NCBI GenBank assembly: GCA_963734495.1
Contig: CAVTHK010000009.1
Coordinates: forward strand, 352,001 to 416,000
Direction: 5' to 3'
Length of the DNA stretch: 64,000 nucleotides
Source: an uncultured Spirochaetota bacterium
Lineage (GTDB): Bacteria; Spirochaetota; Spirochaetia; SZUA-6; CAVTHK01
Shown one piece after another: positions 2-56,839 of this stretch. Numbering within the stretch: the stretch's first letter is position 1; the number at the start of each line of letters is the position of its first letter. Made by a program: the position numbers and the translations under genes. The notes beneath the pieces were generated by a model. That model made no database searches. It saw only the letters and a list, made by a program, of their open reading frames with translations, and was not told the origin of the DNA.

Positions 2-370
2 GATCACCTCGGGGCGTTCGTCTTCTCCCCCGAGGTCGGGACGCCGGCCCTCGATCTGCCGCACCGGCCGCGGCCCTCGACGGCCGCGCGGCGGCTCGAC
101 GAGCTGCTGCGCCTGCAGCGGAAGGTCGTGCAGCGGCGCAATGCCTCGCGCGTCGGGCGGGAGGCGACGGTGCTGCTGGAGAGGCGTGCGGGCCGCGGCC
201 GCACCTGGGTGGGCCGCAGCGCCCGGGAGGCGCCCGAGGTGGACGGCGTGATCCGCGTGCACGCCGTTCCGGAAGGCGCGAGGGCAGGCGACTTCGTGCG
301 CGTGCGCATCACCGGCTCGTCGGGCTACGACTTCGCCGCGGCCTGGGTCCCCGCTAGTCCGCCAGCCTGA
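2..370 (+). CDS. rimO: Ribosomal protein S12 methylthiotransferase, C-terminal part (5' truncated by window edge)
   Basis: Frame 2 reads DHLGAFVFSPEVGTPA...GRSAREAPEVDG...GDFVRVRITG: end of a radical-SAM domain plus TRAM domain with the RimO-type APEVDG motif. Confidence 0.85.
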   Translation, partial: DHLGAFVFSPEVGTPALDLPHRPRPSTAARRLDELLRLQRKVVQRRNASRVGREATVLLERRAGRGRTWVGRSAREAPEVDGVIRVHAVPEGARAGDFVRVRITGSSGYDFAAAWVPASPPA

Positions 371-1928
371 GCGTGTCGTAGCTCAAGGCGAGCGTCGGCC
401 CCAACTTGACGTCCTTGACGCCAGGCCGGGCAAAGACGTACAGGCGGCTCTGCAGGAGCGGGATGGTCGGCACCTCGTCCGTCCAGGCCTTCTGGATCGT
501 CTCGAAGATCTGCCGGCGCGCGTCCGGCTGCGCGCTGCCCCGCTCGGCGGCGAGCCACCCGTCCCACGCGGCGCTGGCGAAGTTGATCCCCATCCCGGCG
601 CTTTCCGCGGTCCCGGCGAACGGGGAGGTGTAGTCGTCCGGGTCGACGTAGTCGGGATACCACCCCAGGAGCCAGGCGGCCATCTGCTTGCTCTTCCACT
701 GGTCCCTGAAGGTCGCCCAATCGGCGGTCCTGACCGTGACCCGGATGGCCCCGCTCCTCTCCAGCTGCCCTTTGAGAGCCTCGGCCATGGCGCGCTCGGA
801 GTCGCCGTAGCGGTCCGGTGCGCACCACAGGTCGAATCTCAACGGCCTCGCGGCGCTGTAGCCGGCCGCGGCCAGGAGCAGCTCCGCCCTTACCGGGTCG
901 GGCTTCTCACCGTAGGCATCCTTGAAGGCAGGCACGTGCCAGGGCACGCCGGCGGGGATCATCGAGTACAAGGCGGAGCTCAGGCCGCGGAACGCCTGAT
1001 CGGCAATCTCCTGCCTGTCGACGAGCGCGGCGACTGCCTGGCGAAGCCGCTTGTCGCTGAAGACCAGCGTCGAGGTCTCGAAGCTCAGGGTGCGGATCTG
1101 CGGGCCGTCGAACCGCCAGGTGACGATGTCGGGCTCCTTCGACAGCTCCCCGATGTCCGAAGGGCTGAAGCTCCGGAACGCGAGGTCGACCTCGCCCTTC
1201 TCGAGGGCGGCACGCATCGCGGCGGCATCGGCGAAATACCGGATGACGATGCGCTTCACCCCCGGCTGAGGGCCCCGCCAGGCGGGGCTGGGCTCGAGCA
1301 CGAGCTCGCGGCCGCGCTCGAACGAGACCAGCCGGTACGGACCCAGCCCGGCCGGGCTTCCACCGGCGAGCTCGTCGACGTCGTGGACGAGCCTGTCCGG
1401 CGGGTAGACCTTCGGGGCGACCGGGAAGTAGGGGGGCGTCGCGGCCAGCGCCGGAAAGAAGGCTGCCGGCTCCTTGAGGCTGAACCTGACCGTGTACCGG
1501 TCGACCACGTCGACCTGCCTGACGAAATCGGTGACGAGCCACGACACGTCGCCCTTGAGCCGCGCGACGCGGTCGATGGACCACTTTACCGCTTCGGCGT
1601 CGAACGGGGTGCCGTCGCTGAACCTGAGATTCCTGCGCAGCCTGAACGTGAACTCGTCGCCCTTGTCGTTGGCCGCGTAGCTCTCCGCGAGGCCCGGCGA
1701 CAGGTTCCTCGTGCCTGGCTCGTAGACGACGAGCCCCCGGCAGATGTTCTGGAGGATCTCCCAGGTGTGGAAGTCGTACGCGCTCGCCGGGTCCATATCG
1801 GTCACCCTCTCGGTGGTGCCGTAGACCAGCGTTTTCGCCGCTGAAGCCGGGGCCACGCGGCCACAGCCCGCCAGGACGAGCCCGGAGGCCAGCGCGACGG
1901 GCAGCAAAGCCGATGGGAGCCTGCGCAT
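354..1928 (-). CDS. ABC transporter substrate-binding lipoprotein, family 5 (peptide/nickel)
   Basis: Lipobox VLAGC after MRRLPSALL; motifs DPASAYD, PGLAESY, FSDGTPFDAEAVKWS, GWYPDYVDPD. Confidence 0.9.
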   Translation of the reverse strand: MRRLPSALLPVALASGLVLAGCGRVAPASAAKTLVYGTTERVTDMDPASAYDFHTWEILQNICRGLVVYEPGTRNLSPGLAESYAANDKGDEFTFRLRRNLRFSDGTPFDAEAVKWSIDRVARLKGDVSWLVTDFVRQVDVVDRYTVRFSLKEPAAFFPALAATPPYFPVAPKVYPPDRLVHDVDELAGGSPAGLGPYRLVSFERGRELVLEPSPAWRGPQPGVKRIVIRYFADAAAMRAALEKGEVDLAFRSFSPSDIGELSKEPDIVTWRFDGPQIRTLSFETSTLVFSDKRLRQAVAALVDRQEIADQAFRGLSSALYSMIPAGVPWHVPAFKDAYGEKPDPVRAELLLAAAGYSAARPLRFDLWCAPDRYGDSERAMAEALKGQLERSGAIRVTVRTADWATFRDQWKSKQMAAWLLGWYPDYVDPDDYTSPFAGTAESAGMGINFASAAWDGWLAAERGSAQPDARRQIFETIQKAWTDEVPTIPLLQSRLYVFARPGVKDVKLGPTLALSYDTLRLAD

Positions 1929-2066
1929 GGGCTTGTTCGTTCGAAGTGAACCGTATTCGTTCCCGCCGCCGCGGTCAACTCGCCGGCGGATTGCGAATTT
2001 TGCATCCGGCCGCAGGCGCGGCGGGCCGGAGCGGCCGGGCGGCGACGAGCCCGGCGCTTGTACGCC

Positions 2067-2095
2067 TTGACTGCGGCGGGGTGCGGAGTTACTGT
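2067..2095 (+). promoter_or_regulatory. Putative sigma70 promoter of the Rrf2 gene
   Basis: TTGACT-17 nt-TACTGT upstream of RBS AAGGAG. Confidence 0.45.
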
Positions 2096-2130
2096 CTTTC
2101 TCAAGCATCTCAGTTGACAAGGAGAAGTGA

Positions 2131-2544
2131 CTGTTCACACTGTCCGCCCGTGCCGTGTATGGCCTCACCGCCGTGGTAGAGCTGGCCCGGCGCCACGATC
2201 GGGGGCCGGTCCAGATCCGCGACATCGCGGACACGCACGGCATTCCGCAGCACTATCTGGAGCAGATCCTCGTCGCCTTGAAGAAATCCGGGATCGTCGA
2301 AAGCGTTCGGGGCGCGCAGGGGGGCTATTCGCTGGCGCGCCCACCTGCGGCGATCCCCGTGGAGGAGGTGCTCGCGGTCCTCGACGGCAAGCTCGAGCTC
2401 GTGGCCGAGGGATGGCGCGAAGGCGCGCTCTCCTTCTACTGGAAGCAGGTCGAAGAGGGGCTCCGGCGGGCCATCACCGGCAACGTCCAGGAGCTCCTGC
2501 TGCGTCTCGAGCACGCCGATGGACAACTTCACTATAGCATTTGA
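2131..2544 (+). CDS. Rrf2-family transcriptional regulator (CymR-like, no Fe-S cysteines)
   Basis: FTLSARAVYGL...IPQHYLEQILVALKKSGIVESVRGAQGGYSLARP; start codon uncertain (in-frame CTG at 2131 or GTG at 2155). Confidence 0.9.
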   Translation: MFTLSARAVYGLTAVVELARRHDRGPVQIRDIADTHGIPQHYLEQILVALKKSGIVESVRGAQGGYSLARPPAAIPVEEVLAVLDGKLELVAEGWREGALSFYWKQVEEGLRRAITGNVQELLLRLEHADGQLHYSI

Positions 2545-2568
2545 CCTGTCCGGTGCCCTTTCTCTTAC

Positions 2569-2597
2569 TTGACCATTCTTATTTGCTTTGGTAGTTT
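2569..2597 (+). promoter_or_regulatory. Putative sigma70 promoter of the sulfur-relay operon
   Basis: TTGACC-17 nt-TAGTTT in an AT-rich gap before RBS GAAGGAG and ATG 2637. Confidence 0.55.
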
Positions 2598-2636
2598 AAT
2601 GTTGACTTTCAAGAGTGACAAACTGAAGGAGCCCAC

Positions 2637-2846
2637 ATGACGCTGACGATCAACGGCAAACGCGAAGAGCTCGCCGCAGATCGACTGACGGTCGTCGAGC
2701 TGCTCAAGCTCAGGGACGTTTCCATGCCCAACATGGTCTCGGTACAGCTCAACGGCGACATCCTGAGCCGTCCCGACTACGCCGCGACGATCGTCAAGGA
2801 CAACGACCAGGTCGAGTTCCTCTATTTCATGGGGGGCGGTTGCTGA
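2637..2846 (+). CDS. thiS: ThiS/HcyS-like sulfur carrier protein with short C-terminal extension
   Basis: 69 aa beta-grasp-like protein MTLTINGK...DQVEFLYFMGGGC. Confidence 0.9.
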   Translation: MTLTINGKREELAADRLTVVELLKLRDVSMPNMVSVQLNGDILSRPDYAATIVKDNDQVEFLYFMGGGC

Positions 2847-2847
2847 C

Positions 2848-4098
2848 GTGACTGACTGGGGGTTCGAGACCAGGGCGATCCACGTCGGCGCGGAGATCTC
2901 GAAAGAGTGGGGGGCGACCCAGACGCCGCTCTACCAGTCGGCAGCGTTTGCCCATCCGGGCCTCGAAGAGGTCGAGGACGTCTTCGCGGGCAGGCGCGGG
3001 GGGTTCCTCTATTCGCGCATCGGCAATCCGACCGTCAGCGTGTTCGAGCAGCGGATGGCGGCTCTCGAGGGCGGCGTGGGGGCGCTGGCCGCGGCCTCGG
3101 GCATGGCCGCGATCGCGACCGTGGCCTTCGCGCTCACGCGGCAGGGTGACCGGATCGTGGCGAGCTCCAGCCTCTTCGGCGGGACGCTCGGGCTCTTCGA
3201 CCGCGTGTTCGGCCGCTACGGGGTGGAGACCCGCTACGTCAGCCCGACCGACCTCGACGCGGTCCGCGCCGCGATCACGGGCCGCACCCGCCTGCTCTTC
3301 GTGGAGACGATCGGGAACCCCAGGGTCGACGTCCCCGACGTGCAGGCCCTCGCCGCCGTCGCGTCCGAGCGGGGCGTGCCCCTGGTCGTCGACGGCACGC
3401 TGTCCACGCCGTACCTGTTCCGGGCCAAGGAACACGGAGCGGCGATCGTCGTGCACTCGGCCACCAAGTACATCACGGGCAACGGCAGCGCGGTGGGCGG
3501 CGTCCTCGTGGACCTGGGCACGTTCGACTGGTCGACCCACCCCGACCCCGACCTCCGCGACGCCTCGCGCAAGGTGGGGCGCGAGCTTGCGTTCCTCAGC
3601 ACGGCGCGCCGCGTCGTGCACGCGAACGTCGGCGGCTCGCAGTCGCCGATGAACGCGTGGCTCCACGCGATCGGCCTGGAGACGCTCGCCCTCCGCATGG
3701 AGCGCCACTGCAGCAACGCCCTCGCGCTGGCGCGGGCGCTCGCGGCCCACCGGGGCGTCGAAGCCGTGGGCTACCCCGGGCTCGACGACAGCCCGTGGCA
3801 CGCCACCGCGGAGCGGCAGTTCGGCGGCCGCTACGGGGCGCTGCTCACGGTGCGGCTGGGCAGCCGCGAGCGCTGCTTCCGGGCGAGCCGGGCGCTGCGG
3901 CTCGCGCGCATCACCCCGAACCTCGGGGACGCGCGCACGCTGGTCATCCACCCGGCATCGTCGATCTACCGGGATGCCGACGAAAAGGCGAGGCTCGCCG
4001 CGGGGGCGCCCGACGACCTGCTGCGGGTGAGCGTCGGGATCGAGACGCCGGCGGACATCGTGGCCGATTTCGAGCAGGCCATATCGGCCGCGGGCTGA
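2848..4098 (+). CDS. O-acetylhomoserine aminocarboxypropyltransferase/sulfhydrylase (Cys/Met PLP family, MetY-like)
   Basis: YSRIGNPT, AASGMAAI, ETIGNP, PLP lysine in HSATKY, LLRVSVGIE. Confidence 0.9.
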   Translation: MTDWGFETRAIHVGAEISKEWGATQTPLYQSAAFAHPGLEEVEDVFAGRRGGFLYSRIGNPTVSVFEQRMAALEGGVGALAAASGMAAIATVAFALTRQGDRIVASSSLFGGTLGLFDRVFGRYGVETRYVSPTDLDAVRAAITGRTRLLFVETIGNPRVDVPDVQALAAVASERGVPLVVDGTLSTPYLFRAKEHGAAIVVHSATKYITGNGSAVGGVLVDLGTFDWSTHPDPDLRDASRKVGRELAFLSTARRVVHANVGGSQSPMNAWLHAIGLETLALRMERHCSNALALARALAAHRGVEAVGYPGLDDSPWHATAERQFGGRYGALLTVRLGSRERCFRASRALRLARITPNLGDARTLVIHPASSIYRDADEKARLAAGAPDDLLRVSVGIETPADIVADFEQAISAAG

Positions 4099-4112
4099 AA
4101 GGGGGAGGACGC

Positions 4113-4946
4113 ATGGGACTGCGGGAAGACCAGATCGTCCGTTACAGCCGCCACATCCTGCTCCAGGGCGTGGGCGGCACAGGCCAGGAGAAGCTCCTCA
4201 GCTCGAAAGTCCTGGTGGTCGGCGCCGGCGGGCTCGGGTCCCCGATCGCGCTCTACCTGGCCGCCGCGGGGGTCGGGACGCTCGGGATCGTGGACTTCGA
4301 CCGCGTGGACCTGAGCAACCTGCAGAGGCAGATCCTGCACGGGACGGCCGACGTGGGCCGCGAGAAGGTCCTCTCGGCGCGGGAGAGCATCGAGCGGATC
4401 AACCCGGACGTCAAGGTCGTCGCGATCGCGGAGCGGCTCGGCGCGGACAACATCCGCGACGTGATCCGCGAGTACGACTTTGTCGTGGAGGGCACGGACA
4501 ACTTTCCCACCAAGTTCCTCGTCAACGACGCCTGCGTGTTCGAGGGCAAGGCCTTCAACCAGGGCGGCATGCTCCGCTTCCAGGGCCAGACCATGACCTA
4601 CGAGCCGGGCCACGCCTGCTACCGCTGCGTCTACGTCGAGCCGCCGCCCAGGGGCGCCGTGCCCACGTGCAGCGAGGCCGGCGTCCTCGGCGCGATCTCG
4701 GGGATGCTCGGCACGATGCAGGCGGCCGAGGCGCTGAAGTACCTGCTGGGGATCGGCGAGACGCTCACCGACCGCGTGCTGATGTTCGACGCGCTCACGA
4801 TGGACTATCGCACCGTGCGCGTGAGGCGCAACCCCCGCTGCCCGGTCTGCGGCGAGCACCCGACCATCACTGAGCTCAGGGAGTACGAGCAGCCGGCGTG
4901 CGACCTGGATCCGGCCGCGTCCGTCCCCAAGGAAGGATCGGTATGA
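4113..4946 (+). CDS. MoeB/ThiF/HesA-family adenylyltransferase (HcyF-like)
   Basis: RYSRHILL, GAGGLGS, SNLQRQ, CYRC and CPVC zinc motifs, catalytic PTCSEAG. Confidence 0.92.
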   Translation: MGLREDQIVRYSRHILLQGVGGTGQEKLLSSKVLVVGAGGLGSPIALYLAAAGVGTLGIVDFDRVDLSNLQRQILHGTADVGREKVLSARESIERINPDVKVVAIAERLGADNIRDVIREYDFVVEGTDNFPTKFLVNDACVFEGKAFNQGGMLRFQGQTMTYEPGHACYRCVYVEPPPRGAVPTCSEAGVLGAISGMLGTMQAAEALKYLLGIGETLTDRVLMFDALTMDYRTVRVRRNPRCPVCGEHPTITELREYEQPACDLDPAASVPKEGSV

Positions 4947-21462: not shown

Positions 21463-22074
21463 TCAGTTCAGCGAGGGCTTGAAGCCGGTCTCGGCCACGA
21501 TCTTGTGGATGCCGCCCAGCTCGCCGAGCGCCTCTTTCCATCCTTCCTCGGGGTTGGGGTGGAAGATGTGCTTGGCCGCCGCGGGCCGCACCACCCAGGA
21601 GTTGCGCTCGAGCTCCGACTCGAGCTGGCCCGGCGCCCATCCCGAGTAGCCGGCGTAGAGCCGTATCGGAGGACGGGAGCGCTCCTCGAGAGCGGACCAC
21701 GTGTCCACGAGGAAGCCGGTCAGCGAAGAGACCAGCGGCTCGAAGAGCACGTTCTCCACGGGCGCGGAGGCATGCGGGCTGCGCACGTCCTCGGGCAGTC
21801 CCGAGTGCAGGCAGAAGAGGAACTGCGGCTGGACCGGGCCGCCGTAGAACAGAGGCACGCTCGCGGCCGCCGTCGAGGCGAGATCGGGCACGGCTTCGCC
21901 GAGAGTCACGGGCAGCTTCCGGTTGACCACGAGCCCGAAGGCGCCGTCGGCGTTGTGATTGATGATCAGCACCACGGTCCTGTGGAAGTTGGGGTCCGCC
22001 AGATCAGCTTCGGAGATCAGGAAGTGGCCTTCGAGCCACCTCGGGCTTTTGTCGCCCGCTTCCTTGCGAGCCAT
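21463..22074 (-). CDS. YqgE/AlgH family protein
   Basis: DPNFHRTVVL, GAFGLVVNR, YGGPV, AGYSGWAPGQLESE, PSLN C-terminus. Confidence 0.93.
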   Translation of the reverse strand: MARKEAGDKSPRWLEGHFLISEADLADPNFHRTVVLIINHNADGAFGLVVNRKLPVTLGEAVPDLASTAAASVPLFYGGPVQPQFLFCLHSGLPEDVRSPHASAPVENVLFEPLVSSLTGFLVDTWSALEERSRPPIRLYAGYSGWAPGQLESELERNSWVVRPAAAKHIFHPNPEEGWKEALGELGGIHKIVAETGFKPSLN

Positions 22075-22259
22075 GGGTCCAGTGTATTGAGGCCGCGAAC
22101 GAGGGGCAAGCGGGGCGGCCGCGAACGGGCTCGGGGTCGCGTGCCTCGGGGTTCCGTCCTCGGCGCCGCCTTTCGCCGACCGCGATCGGCTTCGCACGCC
22201 CCGCCTCGGACTCTCAGACTGCGGCCGTTCACCTGGGTGAGACCGGGCACAGCCACCAC

Positions 22260-23858
22260 TCACAACACATCATCCTTGCCGCGGAACGCCTTTCTTGCGA
22301 AGCCCAAGAGGCGGCCGATTATCCCCTTCTTCCGATACAGAGCCGCGTAGTACGCCAGCCTGTTGGCTTCCTCCGCTCTACGGCCGGCCTCGATCTGTTG
22401 CGGTGACCATTTGAGCGACCACACGACCGCTCCTCGACGAATGAGGTAGTGTGACTTGCACGCCAGCTGCCAGTTGCCTATGGACGGCCGCACTGTAGGC
22501 CCCTCAACCGTTTCCTCAATAGACCATTCTGTCGGCCCCATAGGCGTCTTGACCTTGCATCCGCATCCGCAGGGACAAAGATGCATGGCGATGTCGAACT
22601 CCTCGGCGACGTACAGTACCCTGGGTTCGAGCACCGCCGGCATGTATTGGACGCGCTGCAAACGGAATCTGATCGGATCTTGAGGGGAGCCGACGGTCCT
22701 CATGTCGCCGATGTCGAACAGGACGTTGAAATACGGGACCTCCTCCAGGTAGAACCCGCGTGCCTGCTTGAACCTCATCACCGCTAGGCAAGCGTTGAGC
22801 GCGTTGAGCTCGCTGATTTGAATATTGCTTCGATATAGGTCGTCTGGGCTGTCGGAGAGCTCCGCGAGTTTCATGTCTCTCACGTTTCGACCGTCCGGCG
22901 ATGAATAGTATGTGGTCCGCAACATACCAGCGAGAGCCGCGCCCTGGCGCCTCAGACCCATTCCGACGTCTACAAAGGGTATTCCCTGCGAAAGCAGCAA
23001 GTCGAACACGGCGGCCCTCGAGGAGCCCTTGTCCACGCACACGAACGCGAACGTTACACCTGCGACATCCTCAGCGGAGGAGGCATCGATCAACCGCGGC
23101 ACAGCAATCAACCCGTTTCGGAAGTTGTCGTAGCGACGTCGGTAGACCTCCGCCTTCGGTTTGCCAAGTTCCCTTGCATCAAGCCTTCCGGGCGAGCGAA
23201 AGGCGTTGTGAACGTGATAGGCATCCAGATCGAATACGCGTATTTCTCGCACCGGCGTCTTCACGAGGAAGTCCAGAACATAAGAGCCCGTACCGCCGAG
23301 TCCGATCACTGCGATCACGTCGTCTTTGAAGAGCGCCGACAGATCCGATATTCCTGCTCTGCTGGTGAGAGTGTCCTGGAACTTGAACACGGAATCCGCT
23401 GCATGGTCGCCGAACGCTCGGTACGTGTAGGGAGTCGCGGCATACCGTTCCATCGCTGGGCCACAGATGATTGCGACGTAGCTTTCTATCTTCTCAAAGA
23501 AGTCCGCGAACTTCCCTTCGGTCCTCGGCTTGTTGGAGAACGATCTCTGGACCACAACGTCGGCGCTTGCGCCGCTCATGGGAAGTTGAGTGGCACCGCC
23601 CCCGAGGTTCGGGATGGGCTTGCCGTCGAGGCCGAAGGGAACCGATCCCGCGAAGTAAACTTGATGGTCGTCCTGGGCAACGTGCACTTGGTCTACGAAA
23701 ACGAGTTTCGCGACAAGCGCCCCGGTCTGCAGCTCGCCCTTTTCGTTCAGGTACGGGATGTCACGAACGACAAGGTATCCGGCGTCGATCGACACCGCAT
23801 ACCCCTTCTCCACCATGCGCCTAATGTCATCGTTATGACTGACCAGTCGCTGAAACAC
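22260..23858 (-). CDS. E2-like (DUF6791-type) domain + ThiF/E1 adenylation domain + DUF6527-like C-terminal domain
   Basis: Probable GTG start 23858 (MFQRLVSHNDDIRR); GLGGTGS, DLDAYHVHNAFRSPG, CVD, DVGMG; C-terminal HLCPCGCG...PSIGNW..CKSHY. Confidence 0.8.
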   Translation of the reverse strand: MFQRLVSHNDDIRRMVEKGYAVSIDAGYLVVRDIPYLNEKGELQTGALVAKLVFVDQVHVAQDDHQVYFAGSVPFGLDGKPIPNLGGGATQLPMSGASADVVVQRSFSNKPRTEGKFADFFEKIESYVAIICGPAMERYAATPYTYRAFGDHAADSVFKFQDTLTSRAGISDLSALFKDDVIAVIGLGGTGSYVLDFLVKTPVREIRVFDLDAYHVHNAFRSPGRLDARELGKPKAEVYRRRYDNFRNGLIAVPRLIDASSAEDVAGVTFAFVCVDKGSSRAAVFDLLLSQGIPFVDVGMGLRRQGAALAGMLRTTYYSSPDGRNVRDMKLAELSDSPDDLYRSNIQISELNALNACLAVMRFKQARGFYLEEVPYFNVLFDIGDMRTVGSPQDPIRFRLQRVQYMPAVLEPRVLYVAEEFDIAMHLCPCGCGCKVKTPMGPTEWSIEETVEGPTVRPSIGNWQLACKSHYLIRRGAVVWSLKWSPQQIEAGRRAEEANRLAYYAALYRKKGIIGRLLGFARKAFRGKDDVL

Positions 23859-24090
23859 TGAACACCATTCCATCCTTGACCCTGACCGATCCATCCGGAG
23901 GGAGGATCCCTTCAGGCCTGTGCCCATGGCCCTTTTTGTACTTCACTGAGTAGGTGATCTCGGGGTGTTGCGCGTAGTCTGGCACGTCAAGGGTCAGTAC
24001 CTCGGCGTAGGTGATTTCGCCCTTCGTCCACTCGTGCGGAGTCCCATTGACGATGATCGTTATTGCTTTGATCACATGAACCATTTGCAT
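23833..24090 (-). CDS. Multi-ubiquitin-domain (beta-grasp) ubiquitin-like protein
   Basis: TIIVNGTPHEW..EITYAEV..TYSVKY..G.L..SVRVKDGMVFSVSATGQS; overlaps the start of the E1 gene. Confidence 0.8.
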   Translation of the reverse strand: MQMVHVIKAITIIVNGTPHEWTKGEITYAEVLTLDVPDYAQHPEITYSVKYKKGHGHRPEGILPPDGSVRVKDGMVFSVSATGQS

Positions 24091-24109
24091 TCCCCCTTCT
24101 CTCGTAGCG

Positions 24110-24352
24110 CTACCGCTTGTCTCGCGGCGGAAACGGGTCGTTGCCTGGGGCTACGGTGTTCTTGTCCCTGAACCGACCGTCACGCCCCTGGATGGTGAGC
24201 TCGCCTCCGCCGGCGGTCTTCAGATTCTCGCGAGCGGCTCGAATAGCCGCACCCTGCGTCGGGTAGATGCGCTCGGCCCTCTCCGCGCCCACGCGTGCGT
24301 TCGCCCATCCCGTTCCCGACTTGTACACCAGTCGATCCTGCGGTTTGCTCAT
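24110..24352 (-). CDS. DUF2188 domain protein
   Basis: W.N..VGAERA..YPTQGAAI.AAR...GGELTIQGRDGRFRDKNT..GNDPFPP; RBS GGAGG. Confidence 0.85.
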   Translation of the reverse strand: MSKPQDRLVYKSGTGWANARVGAERAERIYPTQGAAIRAARENLKTAGGGELTIQGRDGRFRDKNTVAPGNDPFPPRDKR

Positions 24353-24399
24353 CCCGCCTCCTTTCAGGCCGTTGCCTGCGGAATCTCCAGCATGGGACC

Positions 24400-24428
24400 A
24401 ATATATAGCTGTTAGGTAATAGAGTCAA
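24400..24428 (-). promoter_or_regulatory. Near-consensus sigma70 promoter for the DUF2188-Ubl-E1 operon
   Basis: Minus strand TTGACT-17 nt-TATATT. Confidence 0.7.
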
Positions 24429-24447
24429 GAAACAAATCGTTTACTAT

Positions 24448-24489
24448 TTGTATTTCTCTATTGCACAATACAAGCTGGTGTAGTACGTT
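24448..24489 (+). promoter_or_regulatory. Promoter of the XRE-IrrE gene with overlapping inverted repeat (candidate operator)
   Basis: TTGCAC(24461)-17 nt-TACGTT; TTGTATT-N12-AATACAA spans the -35 box. Confidence 0.5.
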
Positions 24490-24532
24490 ATATCCATAGA
24501 GCGCAAGAATCATTCAGGGAGGGAGAGCACCA

Positions 24533-25665
24533 ATGGCCGCAACCGACATTGGCAATAACACTCGGCGCCATATGAAGATACGTGGCTTTACTGTCCCTGC
24601 GTTGGCGAAGAAGTCTGGCATCGGCACCGCGACTCTGTCGAACATCCTGAACGGCAAATCGGAACCCAAGTCCTCTACCCTCATCGGTATAGCAGCGGCA
24701 CTTAGTGTGCCCGTCGTGGAGCTGGTCGCCGACTCGCCTGTCCTCAAGTCACTTCGCTTCAGAACTGCGAAGACTCTGAGCGGTAGGGAGAAAGCGGAAC
24801 GAGAACAACTCAAGCATGACACCGCGCTATGGTTGGCCAACTACAGCTTCCTGAGAGGCAATTGGGCGTGTATCAGGAATTCCGCCTCGGTGAAATCGGC
24901 GGAAAGGACCCAGAGCAGGCGGCAATCTCCGTCAGGCAAGCGCTGGACGTTCGGTCACCGGCAATTGCTGATCTCCCGCAACTAATGGAACAAGCCGGCA
25001 TCAAACTGAGAATCCGGAGGTTTGGCTTCAGGAAGACCTTCGGCATATCGGTGGGCGAGAACGATGGCGGACCCGCAATCGTGGTGAACTCGGAGCAAGG
25101 GATTCCGGTCGAACGGCAGCTGTTCAGCGTCGCGCATGAGCTCGGCCACCTTGTTCTTCACAAGAGCTCTTACGACCAGAGCAAGGTCGATGAGAACGAT
25201 GAAGAAGAGCGTGCAGCGAACCTCTTTGCGGGCCAGTTCTTGATACCCGACGAAGGCCTAGACAAATCGTGGGAGGATTCCAGAGGACTCCACTGGGTGG
25301 ACAGCGTCCTGGTCATAAAGAAGCATTTCAAAGTGAGCTACATGACCGTGCTCGTACGGCTCGCCCAGCGCTTGGCGAGGCCGGACCTTGACCTGGGAAC
25401 CCTGATCGCTCGATTCAGAATGGAATATGCGGATCGCCACGGCCATCAGCTGAAGGGCCACTACGAACCGGATCCCATTACCGGTCCAGTCGCGGATGAT
25501 GATCCCAGACACCTCGACGAGACCGATTTCGTAGAGGACCGGTTTGCCAGGCTCGTGCGGCAGGCGTTCGAGAAGGAGATCATTTCAATTGGACGAGCCG
25601 GCGAAATGCTGGGACACTCACTCGAAGAGATGCGCGCCTTGGCAAGGGCTTGGCAGGAGGTATAG
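24533..25665 (+). CDS. XRE HTH fused to ImmA/IrrE (M78) zinc metallopeptidase; frameshift near 24850
   Basis: LAKKSGIGTATLSNILNGKSEP; FSVAHELGHL, EERAANLFAG; LANYSFL continues as RQLGVYQEF in the next frame. Confidence 0.88.
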
Positions 25666-25670
25666 CTGCT

Positions 25671-25780
25671 TTGTCTGCCATCGCGCGAAAGGCGGCGATA
25701 TGCGACGCAAATGTGCTCATCGATTTCGTCAAGGCGGACGAAGGTATCTTGGCGATGCTCGCCGGCTATTCCGAGATACT
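25671..25780 (+). CDS. PIN-domain protein N-terminus, truncated at the junction
   Basis: RBS AGGAGG, TTG start, ICDANVLIDF PIN-type motif directly after the XRE-M78 gene. Confidence 0.65.
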
Positions 25781-26812
25781 ACCATCTACCTGGGTAAATT
25801 GGCCGCCTGCAACTAAGTTGTTGCCATTCAACGCCAAAGACAGGACCACTCCATTTGTGCCGCCCATACTTGACCAGGAAACGCCATCCCAACGGGCAAT
25901 ATAGCTGTCAGGGTTCGTAAAAGAGCCACCTGCAAATACCTCTGTGCCACTGACCGCCAGGGCAAGGACGACTTCGCTGCCGCCGATACCCAACCCACCC
26001 CCCAATGCAGACCAGGAAGATCCGGTCCATTTGGCTATGTTCTGCGCGAACACGCTGCCGGCATGATCAAACGTACCGGCAACAAAAAGATTACCACTGC
26101 CGTCCATGGCAAGCGCCTGTACCACGCCGACGAATTTTCCACTGCTTGACAGGCCTGGAGTACCGCCAACCAATGACCAGGTTTGGGCAACCAAATCCCA
26201 GCGGCCCAGGCTCCAGGCACTCTGACCATTCAGATCGTTGAAGCTGCCGCCGACATAAACCGACGTTCCACTGACCAGGATGGCGTAAACTTGCCCAAGG
26301 GCACCGCCTCCGAGGGCATACCACAGATGGGTAATCATGCTCCAGCGAGCGATATTATTTGCGGCGACACCGCCAGCCTGGCTGAACGATCCGCCGACAT
26401 AAATATCGCTGCCACTCACTGCCATGGCATAAACCTGGCTGGCAGCCCCACCATTGGTCACGCCATTGAGAAATCGTTTATCCCAATATTGATCCCCGAC
26501 CTGCTGAGGCGCCAGCGGAGCGGTAAGCATGGCGTCGGGGGAAGGTTCAAAACGCGGACTACCATCCGCGCCTGTATGCATCAACCAACCGCTGGCGTTA
26601 AAACTTCCTTGGGTGCCCATTTTTAATGAACCATCCGGGTTTAGTACGCCTGCAATAGTCGTTACAGGTGTTGCGGGGTTTCCATTTTGCCAATTTGCTG
26701 AGCTTTTTTGGAAAAGAAAAGATTGGACGGGATTGCCTGAAACAGGCTGGGTTAATGAAAAAAATAAGCTAATTACCATAACAATATTGAAGCGGAGGGT
26801 AGGATTCTTCAT
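25766..26812 (-). CDS. Secreted beta-propeller repeat protein, probably truncated at its C-terminus by the junction
   Basis: Signal peptide, repeats V.ALAVSG..YVGGSF..AG...NIARW.G..WSALG; ends mid-repeat. Confidence 0.75.
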   Translation of the reverse strand: MKNPTLRFNIVMVISLFFSLTQPVSGNPVQSFLFQKSSANWQNGNPATPVTTIAGVLNPDGSLKMGTQGSFNASGWLMHTGADGSPRFEPSPDAMLTAPLAPQQVGDQYWDKRFLNGVTNGGAASQVYAMAVSGSDIYVGGSFSQAGGVAANNIARWSMITHLWYALGGGALGQVYAILVSGTSVYVGGSFNDLNGQSAWSLGRWDLVAQTWSLVGGTPGLSSSGKFVGVVQALAMDGSGNLFVAGTFDHAGSVFAQNIAKWTGSSWSALGGGLGIGGSEVVLALAVSGTEVFAGGSFTNPDSYIARWDGVSWSSMGGTNGVVLSLALNGNNLVAGGQFTQVDGSISE

Positions 26813-27066: not shown

Positions 27067-27525
27067 TTAAAAATTCTCGAGTAATTCCAAAACCAAGTTC
27101 AATTTTTGGCTGGCGTCCATATAGGTATACATTCCACCGGTGTACTGACCTTGCTGGACCATGGGAATGCCTTTCGACTCCAGAACCTGAACCACTTTGC
27201 CGGTATCTTTTATCTGGAAAGCAATATGGTGAAATCCATCCCCATGATTGATCAACGCTTCTTTCCAGGTACTTGGCTCGCCAATCGGTTCAATCAGCTC
27301 CAGATCTACCTGACCGAGGTGAAAAAATGCCAGTTTTGCGCGGGCATAACTGGGTTGTCCGCAGGTACTCGGTCTTGGCGGCCTCATATTCATCTGTAAT
27401 GATGACTTCGGGTCGCGGTAGTCCGAATACTTCGCAGTAGGCATCGATCGATTTTTCGATATCTTTTACAACCAGGCCAATCTGGGTCACGATGTTTGTC
27501 CCAATCCTATCGGCTGTTCAGACAT
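27067..27525 (-). CDS. VOC family protein (methylmalonyl-CoA epimerase/glyoxalase-like); frameshifted
   Basis: TQIGLVVKDIE, LELIEP, GDGFHHIAF across frames. Confidence 0.8.
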
Positions 27526-27654: not shown

Positions 27655-28248
27655 TCAATCGCGATTTACCCAACGGTCCAGGTTTTCAGGAAAATCATAG
27701 CTGCACAGGCGCTCTAAAAGTGATTCCGCGTTCTGGTCATGGATGAATAACATTTTATGTTCGGCGTAGATAAAGCCTTCTTCATGCGCGCGTTGAATCA
27801 TCGCCAGGAGGGGATCGAAGTAATTGCGCACATTCAGCAGGCCCACCGGTTTGTGGTGAAGGCCAATTTGGGCCCAGGTCAAGCGTCTCAAATAATTCGT
27901 CGAATGTGCCATATCCTCCCGGCAGGGCGATAAATGCATCCGCCATGGCAGACATGCGCGCCTTACGGATCTGGATATCCGGTACGATTTCCAGCGAGGT
28001 CAATCCCGCATGGATCAGCTGAGGTGTATTGAGGTTTTCAGAGACAATTCCGATCACCTGACCACCTGACTCCAGGACACCATCGGCGAGGGCGCCCATT
28101 AAGCCTGTTTTTCCCGCTCCGTAGACCAGATTGAATACCGGCATGGGCAAGCAAGGCGCCCATTTCATAGGCGGCCTTATGATAATCCGGGTGAAGATGG
28201 TCGGCTGAACCACAGTACACGCAGATCGATATGAATAGATGTGCTCAT
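27655..28248 (-). CDS. LOG family (TIGR00730) nucleotide phosphoribohydrolase; frameshifted
   Basis: VYCGSA, LVYGAGKTGLMG, RKARM, ALPGGYGTFDE, TWAQIGLH.KP. Confidence 0.88.
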
Positions 28249-30116: not shown

Positions 30117-30813
30117 TCATGACCTCAGTGAATAATCCACTGCTGCCAGAGCATGAACGCGGGTGGTGTCAAAAACAGGCACCGGAGAGTCAGCCGGGCC
30201 GATTAACATGCCTATTTCTGTGCAACCTAAAATAATCCCTTGCGCGCCTTGATCCACCAGTTTCTGGATGATGTCGATGTAGACCTGGCGAGATTGAGGT
30301 CGGATGATTCCCTGGACCAATTCGTCATAAATCACCCGGTGGATAATCACGCGGTCCTCCGCAGGTGGAGTGAGGACGGATAAACCATATACATCACGCA
30401 GACGTCCCCTGGTAAAAATCCTGTTCCATGGTAAATCGAGTGCCCAACAAACCGATCTTCGTCAGACCTTGGGCGCAGATCATCTGAGCCGTGGCATCGG
30501 CAATATGTAAAAATGGCAGGGCGACTTCCTGCTGGATCGTGTCAGCAACGATGTGCATGGTATTTGTGCATAAAACGAGGCATTCAGCGCCTGCCCGTTG
30601 GCATTGCCGTCCGGCTGCGACCATCACCTTGCCGGCTTCTTGCCAACGATCTTCATGCTGCAGGGTCTCAATTTCGCTAAAATCGACGGATACCAGCACG
30701 CATTTTGCTGAATGGAAGCCCCCCAATCGCCGGTGGACTTCCTCGTTGATCAGTCGGTAATACTCAACCGTGGATTCCCAGCTCATTCCGCCAATCAGGC
30801 CAATCGTTTTCAT
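30117..30813 (-). CDS. Aspartate/glutamate racemase family protein; frameshifted
   Basis: GLIGGMSWEST, LCTNTMH, LLGTRFTM, ILGCTEI. Confidence 0.9.
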
Positions 30814-55875: not shown

Positions 55876-56839
55876 CCAAATCAGCCCTGCTTTTTGGGTG
55901 GGCCCGATCCCAGTTTTTGGCAACCTGATCCTTTCACCGATGGATGGGGTGACCGACCTGCCTTTTCGGATCATCACGCGGCGATTGGGATCAGCGATGA
56001 GCTACACCGAGTTCATCAATGCGATGGACGTGGTGAACGGAAATCCCCACCTGCCGGAACGGCTGCGTTTCTTGGAAGAAGAACGGCCGGTGGTCATCCA
56101 GATTTATGATGACCAACCTGGGCGGATGGTTGAAGCTGCCCAAGTGCTGGAGATGTTACATCCGGATATTATCGATGTCAATATGGGCTGTCCGGCGAAA
56201 ACGGTGTCTTGCCGTGGGGCAGGAGCGGGTTTGCTGAAGGAACCGAAAAAGGTCGCCGAAATCATCTCCAGCCTGACTGCCAATCTTACCGTACCGGTGA
56301 CCGCTAAGATCCGCCTGGGTTGGGATGACCAGAGCCGGAATTACCTCGAAATTGCCAAGATTGTCGAAGGGTCAGGCGGAAAATTGCTGGCAGTGCACGG
56401 ACGGACGCGCATGCAGAATTACGGCGGGAAGGCCGATTGGGATGCGATTGCCGAAATCAAACAGGCGGTGCGCATCCCGGTCATCGGGAATGGCGATGTA
56501 AACAAAGTTGCCGATATTCAACGCCTCATCCAACACACAGGTTGTGATGGGGTGATGATTGGACGGGCAGCCATCGAGAATCCCTGGATCTTTTCCGGAA
56601 AAGATCGTAACCAGGTGGACCCGGCCCTGGTTTACATGACGTTGATGGATCATCTCAAAGCAAACTTAGATTACTACGGGGAAAAAGGGCTGGTATTTTT
56701 ACGAAAATACGTAAAACGATATCTCAGGCTGTATTCCATCGATCCAGAGCAAATGTATGCGCTAATGACCTGTGAGCAGCCAGGGCATTTTATCGAGTTG
56801 GTGGATGAGGTGTTTCAGGCAATCCGTTCGCCGGTCTAA
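55868..56839 (+). CDS. dusB: tRNA dihydrouridine synthase (DusB-like)
   Basis: SPMDGVTD, DVNMGCP, TAKIRLG, VHGRT, NGDV, MIGRAA..NPW. Confidence 0.9.
   Translation: MPDQISPAFWVGPIPVFGNLILSPMDGVTDLPFRIITRRLGSAMSYTEFINAMDVVNGNPHLPERLRFLEEERPVVIQIYDDQPGRMVEAAQVLEMLHPDIIDVNMGCPAKTVSCRGAGAGLLKEPKKVAEIISSLTANLTVPVTAKIRLGWDDQSRNYLEIAKIVEGSGGKLLAVHGRTRMQNYGGKADWDAIAEIKQAVRIPVIGNGDVNKVADIQRLIQHTGCDGVMIGRAAIENPWIFSGKDRNQVDPALVYMTLMDHLKANLDYYGEKGLVFLRKYVKRYLRLYSIDPEQMYALMTCEQPGHFIELVDEVFQAIRSPV

Follow-up and report, generated by a model that had tools for sequence, protein, structure and literature searches.

The window analysed here, a 64,000-nt stretch of DNA from an uncultured Spirochaetota bacterium (C9:352001-416000), carries an operon for a bacterial ubiquitin-like (Bub) conjugation system on its minus strand. 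The assembly consists of 18 contigs and is 83% complete with 4.7% contamination. The operon occupies positions 22260-24352 and is sequentially composed of a DUF2188 gene, bubA, and a large gene in which bubBD and bubE are joined (here bubBDE), arranged head to tail. The leading DUF2188 gene (24110-24352, minus strand) encodes 80 residues (Pfam PF09954, E 1.1e-16). Its stop codon lies 19 nt from the ATG of bubA (23833-24090, minus strand), which encodes a ubiquitin-like protein (Ubl) of 85 residues built from a single β-grasp domain (Pfam Multi_ubiq, E 4.9e-17); a second ATG at 24084 would give 83 residues. The bubBDE gene (22260-23858, minus strand) encodes 532 residues from GTG 23858, and its frame is open from ATG 23927 (22260-23927, 555 residues). 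The GTG is favoured as the start because relatives of 397 and 531 residues begin at the equivalent codon. With this start the gene overlaps bubA by 26 nt; a start at ATG 23873 would extend the overlap to 41 nt. An earlier reading of the DNA made from the letters alone (the sequence-only reading) had described three packed minus-strand genes for DUF2188, a Ubl and a ThiF-type E1, the last two overlapping by 26 nt. The Pfam matches confirm the genes, and the overlap holds with the GTG start.

The bubBDE polypeptide contains three domains recognized by Pfam, given here in residues of the 555-residue frame. An E2-like domain, DUF6791, spans residues 33-186 (23370-23831, minus strand; E 1.2e-41). 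It is followed by an E1 adenylation domain of ThiF fold at residues ~204-413 (22689-23318, minus strand), in which the ThiF model matches residues 204-323 with E 3e-12. The C-terminal part, residues ~421-555 (22263-22667, minus strand), is a BubE (DUF6527) peptidase domain, matched by Pfam over residues 446-503 with E 2.5e-21. NCBIfam NF004803 covers residues 25-413 (E 3.8e-184) and ends ahead of the DUF6527 part. Pfam finds no JAB/JAMM peptidase in any of the eight reading frames examined from 21463 to 26812.

The '6E/DUF6527' operons are named Bub in two preprints of November 2024 from the Corbett laboratory (Ye et al. and Gong et al.). Type II Bub systems are defined by BubA, BubBD and BubE, as set out in the available text of the first (Ye et al., bioRxiv 10.1101/2024.11.21.623953). 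The same text describes conjugation by way of two oxyesters, one formed on a tyrosine of the E1 crossover loop and the other on a serine of the E2. It also describes an invariant Ser accompanied by Lys and His in the E2 part of Type II BubBD, and a zinc-dependent Ser-His peptidase, BubE, that takes off conjugates. The locus in the window is very probably a Type II Bub (6E.2/DUF6527) operon in which BubBD and BubE are fused, carried on a mobile 3.5-kb cassette. It agrees with Type II Bub in every feature that can be tested on sequence. The kind is already described, and the fused architecture is a minor variant of it. The sequence-only reading had proposed an operon for Ubl, E2-E1 and DUF6527 conjugation proteins with an HTH-metallopeptidase switch, belonging to a poorly characterised class. 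Pfam, PADLOC and NCBIfam bear out the domain calls, but the class is better known than was supposed, since the oxyester chemistry and the BubE peptidase of Type II Bub have been published.

The residues expected of such an enzyme are present and conserved, as scored by aligning 46 sequences of BubBD type and 48 of BubE type. The E2-like domain contains the motif RSFSNKP and is devoid of a catalytic cysteine motif. S129 is found in 44/46 aligned relatives, S131 and K133 each in 46/46, and H88 in 44/44. In the E1 domain, G209, G211, G212 and G214, R244, D299, and Y365 of the crossover loop are each invariant (46/46). The motifs GLGGTGS and D.D..HN.FR, pointed out in the sequence-only reading, are present in the window protein and likewise invariant in the 46 relatives. 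In the BubE domain, C451, C453, C455 and C490, along with S482 and H493, occur in 48/48 sequences and match the zinc site (C57, C59, C61 and C99) and the dyad (S92 and H102) reported for Citrobacter BubE in the available preprint text (bioRxiv 10.1101/2024.11.21.623953). The domain is composed of this C4 zinc site, the Ser-His dyad, and a C-terminal amphipathic helical tail. For E. coli BubBD the preprint names the catalytic Tyr Y342 together with S106 and R219; shifting the window numbering by an offset of 23 places S129 on S106 and Y365 on Y342.

The gene order and the predicted folds point the same way. The order bubA-bubBD-bubE is found in 77 of 80 related loci from species-representative genomes, and the remaining three contain no detectable bubA. 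A profile of 72 Ubl relatives matches the solved E. coli BubA structure (PDB 9cd2) with E 1.5e-15, which agrees with the earlier description of an 85-residue multi-ubiquitin protein. The AlphaFold model of the large protein has a mean pLDDT of 72.9 and a pTM of 0.48. In the 532-residue model, ten-residue blocks across residues 401-460 have mean pLDDT values of 83-95, and helices span residues 486-526. A Foldseek search of the PDB with the model returned Citrobacter BubCD on top (9ea4, E 4.8e-8); the match by sequence has E 0.0029.

The Ubl ends in TGQS in 77 of 78 sequences, the window included. E. coli BubA ends in T-D-K-S, and the feature common to the two is a terminal Ser, not a Gly. The main texts of the Bub preprints, as available, carry no comment on this residue. 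Maturation of the Ubl by loss of its last two residues, exposing Gly83, was considered and rejected because E. coli BubA shares only the Ser. It is also disfavoured by the conjugation of E. coli BubA in vitro without BubE, reported in the available preprint text (bioRxiv 10.1101/2024.11.21.623953). If the encoded end is indeed the activated one, the invariant terminal Ser would mean that the family activates a non-glycine C terminus without processing.

The feature that sets the window protein apart is the in-frame fusion of BubE to the C terminus of BubBD. Among the best 120 database proteins, seven carry DUF6527 on the same chain (P0001-P0007, 429-532 residues, 74-92% identical), one (P0008) is a truncated form, and the other 112 are 390-404 residues long without DUF6527. 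In the species-representative genomes, bubBD and bubE are separate frames at all 80 loci (0/80 fused), most commonly with an 11-nt overlap (39/80). Of 80 metagenome loci, 74 have both parts, and these lie in one frame in three (L089, L090, and L158). L089 and L090 contain a fusion of the window type. L158 was rejected as a second fused lineage, as an in-frame internal deletion removes the end of its E1 domain; it is probably defective or an artefact. A sequencing error was likewise rejected as the source of the fusion, which is common to seven protein clusters of several origins and the contigs L089 and L090 at 74-92% identity. Fused relatives of 530-532 residues retain the linker and all BubE residues, and the fusion is taken as real and functional on this ground. 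At the junction, the frame of bubE stays open across the former start of that gene, which indicates that a small indel in the last bubBD codons made the fusion. The main text of the Bub preprints, as available, makes no mention of a fused BubBD-BubE, and supplementary Table S1 may list such operons.

A regulatory gene lies upstream of the operon and diverges from it across a 180-nt gap (24353-24532). This gene (24533-25665, plus strand) encodes an XRE-type helix-turn-helix (HTH) domain and an M78 (ImmA/IrrE) peptidase domain on a single chain, in the manner of a CapH-CapP fusion, and is interrupted by a single-base frameshift at 24853. The HTH frame begins at 24533 and the M78 frame covers 24829-25665. 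Pfam assigns HTH_3 (E 3.3e-9) and Peptidase_M78 (E 3.2e-19), and PADLOC assigns RmrA (E 2e-23), capP (E 1.1e-15) and capH (E 1.5e-4). Close homologues, 74-81% identical, are single 375-residue proteins with both domains. In a tblastn search with one of them (P0122), residues 1-107 end at 24853 and residues 108-375 start there in the next frame; the two frames are therefore halves of one gene. L089 carries the gene unbroken. In the window, a consensus error may account for the frameshift; three genes just to the right are also split between frames. The XRE-IrrE module of the sequence-only reading stands as to its domains but is one frameshifted gene rather than a pair.

Within the divergent gap lies a putative σ70-like promoter for DUF2188-bubA-bubBDE (24400-24428, minus strand; TTGACT-17-TATATT, 10/12 positions), both hexamers of which are largely conserved in L089 and L090. 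An imperfect palindrome at 24432-24451, just upstream of the -35 element, has 9-nt arms that are 89% complementary and is a candidate operator only; it is partly kept in the two contigs. On the far side of the regulator, the 5′ stump of a PIN-like gene (25650-25768, plus strand; ~40 codons) marks the end of the conserved module. Its frame matches the PIN-like protein of L089 over only ~40 residues, and nucleotide homology ends at 25768. The L089 gene encodes the full 175 residues, for which the Pfam PIN match (E 8.6e-4) is under the cut-off. Homology to PIN proteins had been noticed beforehand and holds over these ~40 residues, but the stump has no Pfam or PADLOC match of its own and falls short of a complete PIN domain and the acidic residues of its active site.

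Regulators of this type also occur near other Bub operons. With a home-made M78 profile, 52 of the 80 genome loci have an M78-like frame in the 3.5 kb upstream, divergent in 38. CapH and CapP are reported for 168 of 544 Bub operons in the available preprint text (bioRxiv 10.1101/2024.11.21.623953). In the other 14 of these 52 loci, the M78-type profile matches a same-strand frame of ~200-270 residues directly upstream of bubA, with E 1e-5 to 1e-20 (L003, L004, L008, L014, L021, L025, L026, L041, L046 and others). These frames may encode another type of metallopeptidase that is part of the operon.

In such operons, DUF2188 recurs as an accessory gene in first position. It is present in 13 of the 80 genome loci, directly upstream of bubA on the same strand in 12 and 4 kb away in one, and it also leads the operon in L089 and L090. 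The window gene corresponds to the PADLOC candidate PDC-S16 (E 5.6e-18), and DUF2188 occurs in other CapH/CapP-controlled operons (Lau et al., bioRxiv 10.1101/2022.04.27.489752). The term is absent from the main text of either Bub preprint (0 occurrences); supplementary Table S1 may list such operons. Loci with DUF2188 have an M78 frame in 11/12 cases vs 41/68 for those without (Fisher p = 0.048, for related loci that are not independent). In this comparison 11 loci have less than 2.5 kb of upstream sequence, and 8 of the 19 profile seeds had a Pfam M78 match; the association of DUF2188 with M78 regulators is weak. DUF1508-Ubl fusions have been reported in a published Ubl study. A relationship of DUF2188 to YegP/DUF1508 was rejected, being supported by neither sequence nor fold: no DUF1508 match appears at E up to 10, no PDB sequence matches the DUF2188 profile, and the DUF2188 model (mean pLDDT 82) has no Foldseek PDB match below E 0.08. 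A complex prediction of DUF2188, Ubl and the fused enzyme scored 0.00 in a run made without controls, a result that carries no weight on either side of the question of binding.

The operon and its regulator form a cassette (22271-25768) that is 82.4% identical in nucleotide sequence to L089 and L090, in which the flanks are unrelated. The L089 cassette has flanks of ~0.55 GC, and DNA of 0.65-0.74 GC adjoins the cassette in L090. Because the cassette is this similar in contigs of different flanks and GC, it is regarded as a mobile unit that retains its own composition. The Bub cassette hence moves between hosts of widely different base composition. In the window, GC is 0.70-0.76 in the left flank, 0.57 in the Bub module, and 0.43-0.57 on the right side through to the contig end. 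Contig C9 as a whole has ~0.69 GC up to 374.2 kb and then 0.51-0.57 through its end at 424 kb (374260-424061). GC at third codon positions is 0.88-0.95 in the left-hand genes, as against 0.63-0.77 in the Bub genes and 0.53-0.69 in those on the right. The GC drop relative to flanking genes noted in the sequence-only reading is correct for the left flank, but the right side is lower still.

The left junction is marked by a GC-rich host repeat (22110-22211) between an AlgH-like gene and the Bub stop codon. Seven other copies are present in the same assembly at 76-93% identity, one of them inverted, at C3:~56049-56095 (45/47 identical). The repeat, ~50-100 nt long, has at least eight copies in the assembly (also at C3:~56037-56110, C5:71536-71622, C5:94777-94841, and in C11 and C12) and at least one in a same-genus genome. 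Position 22111 is where synteny of the window with G001, a same-genus genome, stops. In that genome, just ~34 nt separate the AlgH flank from the homologue of C3:56227 onward. C3 starts with 56 kb at 0.40-0.60 GC, of which the first 50 kb are at 0.40-0.45. Inverted host-repeat copies flank the foreign-composition block on either side. The context is most simply read as a genuine insertion of mosaic foreign DNA, at least 106 kb long, with Bub on its left border and a break of the assembly inside it; a 3.5-kb island between host genes, as had been supposed, does not fit. Horizontal acquisition, also claimed earlier, is sustained by absence of the cassette from the syntenic site of G001, by the presence of DUF6527 in only 2 of 40 relatives searched and its absence from G001 (99% complete), and by the 82% identity in differently flanked contigs. 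No integrase was found in the 50-kb C9 tail, and one copy with five stop codons is present at C3:37642-38133.

An alternative to this insertion is that the Bub cassette, or all DNA to its right, comes from another organism and the contig is a chimeric join. We consider such a join possible but not probable. GC falls from ~0.72 to 0.57 within ~150 nt at 22.1-22.3 kb and stays low over the last 50 kb of C9, foreign GC also appears at other contig ends such as the first 50 kb of C3, and the third-position GC of the Bub and right-hand genes is below that of the left-hand genes. The right block contains ordinary chromosomal genes (Dus, FGGY kinase, POR, and an ABC transporter). At least three of its genes, and one inside the cassette, are split by frameshifts, as expected of a low-coverage consensus, and the completeness and contamination values given above would also accommodate a join. 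Set against these points, both contig ends that meet at the exact G001 site, where the flanks are ~34 nt apart, carry foreign DNA, and inverted host-type repeat copies bracket it. A single real insertion is a likelier event than two separate misjoins that happen to fall at one site. Moreover, L090 has the same fused cassette beside DNA of 0.65-0.74 GC, and integrase genes stand at several other contig ends, as expected of breaks in real mobile elements. One public read run, matching 6% of sampled words, yielded nothing beyond short pieces of relatives, and no contig assembled from it crosses a junction.

Two functional alternatives bear on the operon itself. The XRE-M78 and PIN genes could be a self-standing toxin-antitoxin or defence pair, RmrA-like or of the spr1629 type, that merely neighbours Bub and is not its switch; this we regard as rather doubtful. 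The PADLOC RmrA profile outscores capP, the NCBIfam 'spr1629 family repressor/antitoxin' model matches with E 2.3e-17, under its cut-off, and the PIN-like gene of L089 overlaps the 3′ end of XRE-M78 by 16 nt. A CapH-CapP fusion that adjoins a DISARM system is described with a vapC-like gene beside it (Lau et al., bioRxiv 10.1101/2022.04.27.489752), and DNA-damage-controlled VapC modules are described in the available text of another study (EMBO J 2026). A switch is favoured by the head-to-head divergence with a shared 180-nt control region, which is the arrangement reported for CapH/CapP and client operons. Since M78-like genes precede Bub in 52/80 related loci, the link is not a one-off, and the toxin-antitoxin and switch roles are not mutually exclusive. 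The other alternative, a ThiF/MoeB-type adenylyltransferase that charges a ThiS/MoaD-like sulfur carrier for cofactor or thio-modification chemistry with no protein conjugation, is highly improbable. The ThiF, MoeB and TcdA families do match, weakly and only in the Rossmann part (NCBIfam E 1.4e-7 to 4.5e-3, far under the cut-offs; PDB TcdA E 6.7e-5 and MoeB E 1.2e-3). Yet thiamine and molybdopterin genes are absent from the cassette, the last residue of the Ubl is Ser where a sulfur carrier would have Gly-Gly, the partner domains are an E2-like domain and a Ubl peptidase, the distribution is patchy (2/40 relatives), and the conjugation activity of the Bub family is published (bioRxiv 10.1101/2024.11.21.623953, as available).

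Several observations weigh against reading the locus as a functional, regulated Type II Bub operon. Under the offset of 23, R244 does not align with the published R219. The catalytic E2 serine is ambiguous from sequence and could be S129 (44/46) or S131 (46/46), and the arrangement of domains in the monomer model of the large protein is unreliable. The promoter, which the sequence-only reading called near-consensus, does match 10 of 12 positions and lies in the intergenic gap, but the number of such sites is at the chance level (one found vs a shuffle mean of 1.5 in a 4.2-kb region). The regulator, broken at 24853 in the present assembly, does not have the intact reading frame of a CapH/CapP-type gene. 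Together with the PIN truncation, this may mean that the cassette is decaying, mis-assembled, or affected by consensus errors. Finally, no Bub operon has to date been shown to protect against phage in the available texts (bioRxiv 10.1101/2024.11.21.623953; EMBO J 2026), and the label 'defence' is therefore unproven.

For the Type II Bub operon, we infer the chemistry and the regulation from the homologous Bub systems published for E. coli and Citrobacter, and ATP-dependent conjugation of the Ubl via oxyesters by the window proteins would follow this scheme. The E1 domain would adenylate the C-terminal carboxylate of the 83-85-residue Ubl, which would need no processing because the activated carboxylate belongs to the encoded terminal Ser. 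Tyr365 of the crossover loop would accept the Ubl as a tyrosine oxyester and hand it to the serine of the E2-like domain (S129 or S131 in RSFSNKP), assisted by K133 and H88, from where it would be transferred to a lysine of a target. The DUF6527 domain, a putative zinc-binding Ser482-His493 peptidase, would take the Ubl off again. Conjugation and deconjugation would be tethered, because the peptidase shares a polypeptide with the E2-E1 enzyme. The divergent single-chain XRE-M78 protein would normally repress the operon, and repression would be released after DNA damage, as for CapH/CapP. To our knowledge, Bub systems are the only ubiquitin-like pathways with oxyester in place of thioester intermediates.

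The closest described relative is the Type II Bub system BubA-BubBD-BubE of E. coli ZDHYS365 (PDB 9cd2). The two systems share the order Ubl, E2-E1 and DUF6527, the cysteine-free set of E2 Ser, Lys and His with a crossover Tyr and an adenylation Arg, the C4 zinc site and Ser-His dyad of BubE without a JAB peptidase, an upstream HTH/M78 regulator, and a Ubl ending in Ser. However, they display four differences. BubE is fused in frame to the C terminus of BubBD in the window. The window Ubl has one β-grasp domain, whereas E. coli BubA has three. The window operon is led by an extra DUF2188 gene. Its regulator is a single-chain XRE-M78 protein with a PIN-like partner, both damaged here. Type I Bub (Citrobacter BubAB, BubCD and BubE; PDB 9ea4, 9ea8, 9eav) has a similar E1 fold, oxyester logic and BubE peptidase, and fusion of a peptidase to the E1 polypeptide is an architectural parallel. 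The peptidase fused in Type I is a JAB domain at the N terminus that cleaves a Ubl-E2 pre-protein, whereas here it is a C-terminal DUF6527 domain, and the window E2 is joined to the E1 instead of the Ubl; the sequence similarity is low, with the E value given above.

More distant are Type II CBASS Cap2, itself an E2-E1 fusion, and Bil, which also comprise E1/E2-type conjugation machinery in mobile, defence-associated operons. PADLOC 'E1-E2' profiles weakly match the Rossmann region of the window protein (best E 4.3e-7). Unlike the window operon, which has no CD-NTase or JAB gene, these systems use catalytic cysteines and JAB peptidases, and Cap2 conjugates the CD-NTase rather than a Ubl. The regulatory side resembles the CapH and CapP switch (Lau et al., bioRxiv 10.1101/2022.04.27.489752) in its divergent upstream HTH repressor and M78 peptidase, a DUF2188 client gene, and, in one described case, a vapC-like neighbour. 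It differs in that HTH and M78 lie on one 375-residue chain, frameshifted in the window, and cleavage and sensing of single-stranded DNA are putative here.

The intact cassette contains, in full, the PIN-like gene, the single-chain XRE-M78 gene, DUF2188, the Ubl, and the fused E2-E1-peptidase. A small Type II Bub lineage, in which the Ser-His peptidase is joined to E2-E1 and travels as a self-contained 4-kb cassette, is suggested tentatively and is on balance unlikely. If the fusion is functional and selected, a peptidase acting in cis could clear self- or off-target conjugates from the enzyme and would be a built-in proofreading or reset step. The single chain hints that conjugation and deconjugation work on the same complex, and a natural E2-E1-peptidase of this kind is a compact construct for biochemistry and structure studies. 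Small leads open to testing are the strictly conserved terminal Ser of the Ubl and the DUF2188 gene that recurs at the head of the operon. The locus is otherwise an ordinary member of a described family.

Other features of the surroundings are as follows. A gene for a secreted β-propeller protein (25766-26812, minus strand; 348 residues with Rax2/Kelch/DUF5122-like repeats) is convergent with the PIN-like stump and apparently stops in mid-repeat. Its end coincides with the end of Bub cassette homology, and it may have been truncated at the same breakpoint. Farther right, a glyoxalase-type gene (27067-27490), a LOG/lysine-decarboxylase-type gene (27655-28220), and an Asp/Glu racemase gene (30117-30813) each consist of two or three frames carrying consecutive parts of one Pfam model. 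These splits are either indel errors or pseudogenes. Low-GC tails occur at several contig ends of this 0.68-GC assembly (C3 and C9, and also C1, C7, C16 and C18), and integrase genes are found near other contig ends (C11:2778, C7:459996, C13:6-7 kb, and C2:245-247 kb); contigs of the assembly thus end in either real mobile DNA or chimeric tails. In L089, the intact cassette is adjoined (5-4660) by a gene for a 1551-residue protein with a HerA/TraG-like P-loop region and then an HhH-GPD glycosylase-like gene, surroundings that may be a defence-island context. Three adjacent tyrosine-recombinase genes with identical scores are present at both C1:35794-38155 and C9:166820-169181, in what looks like a duplicated three-recombinase mobile element.

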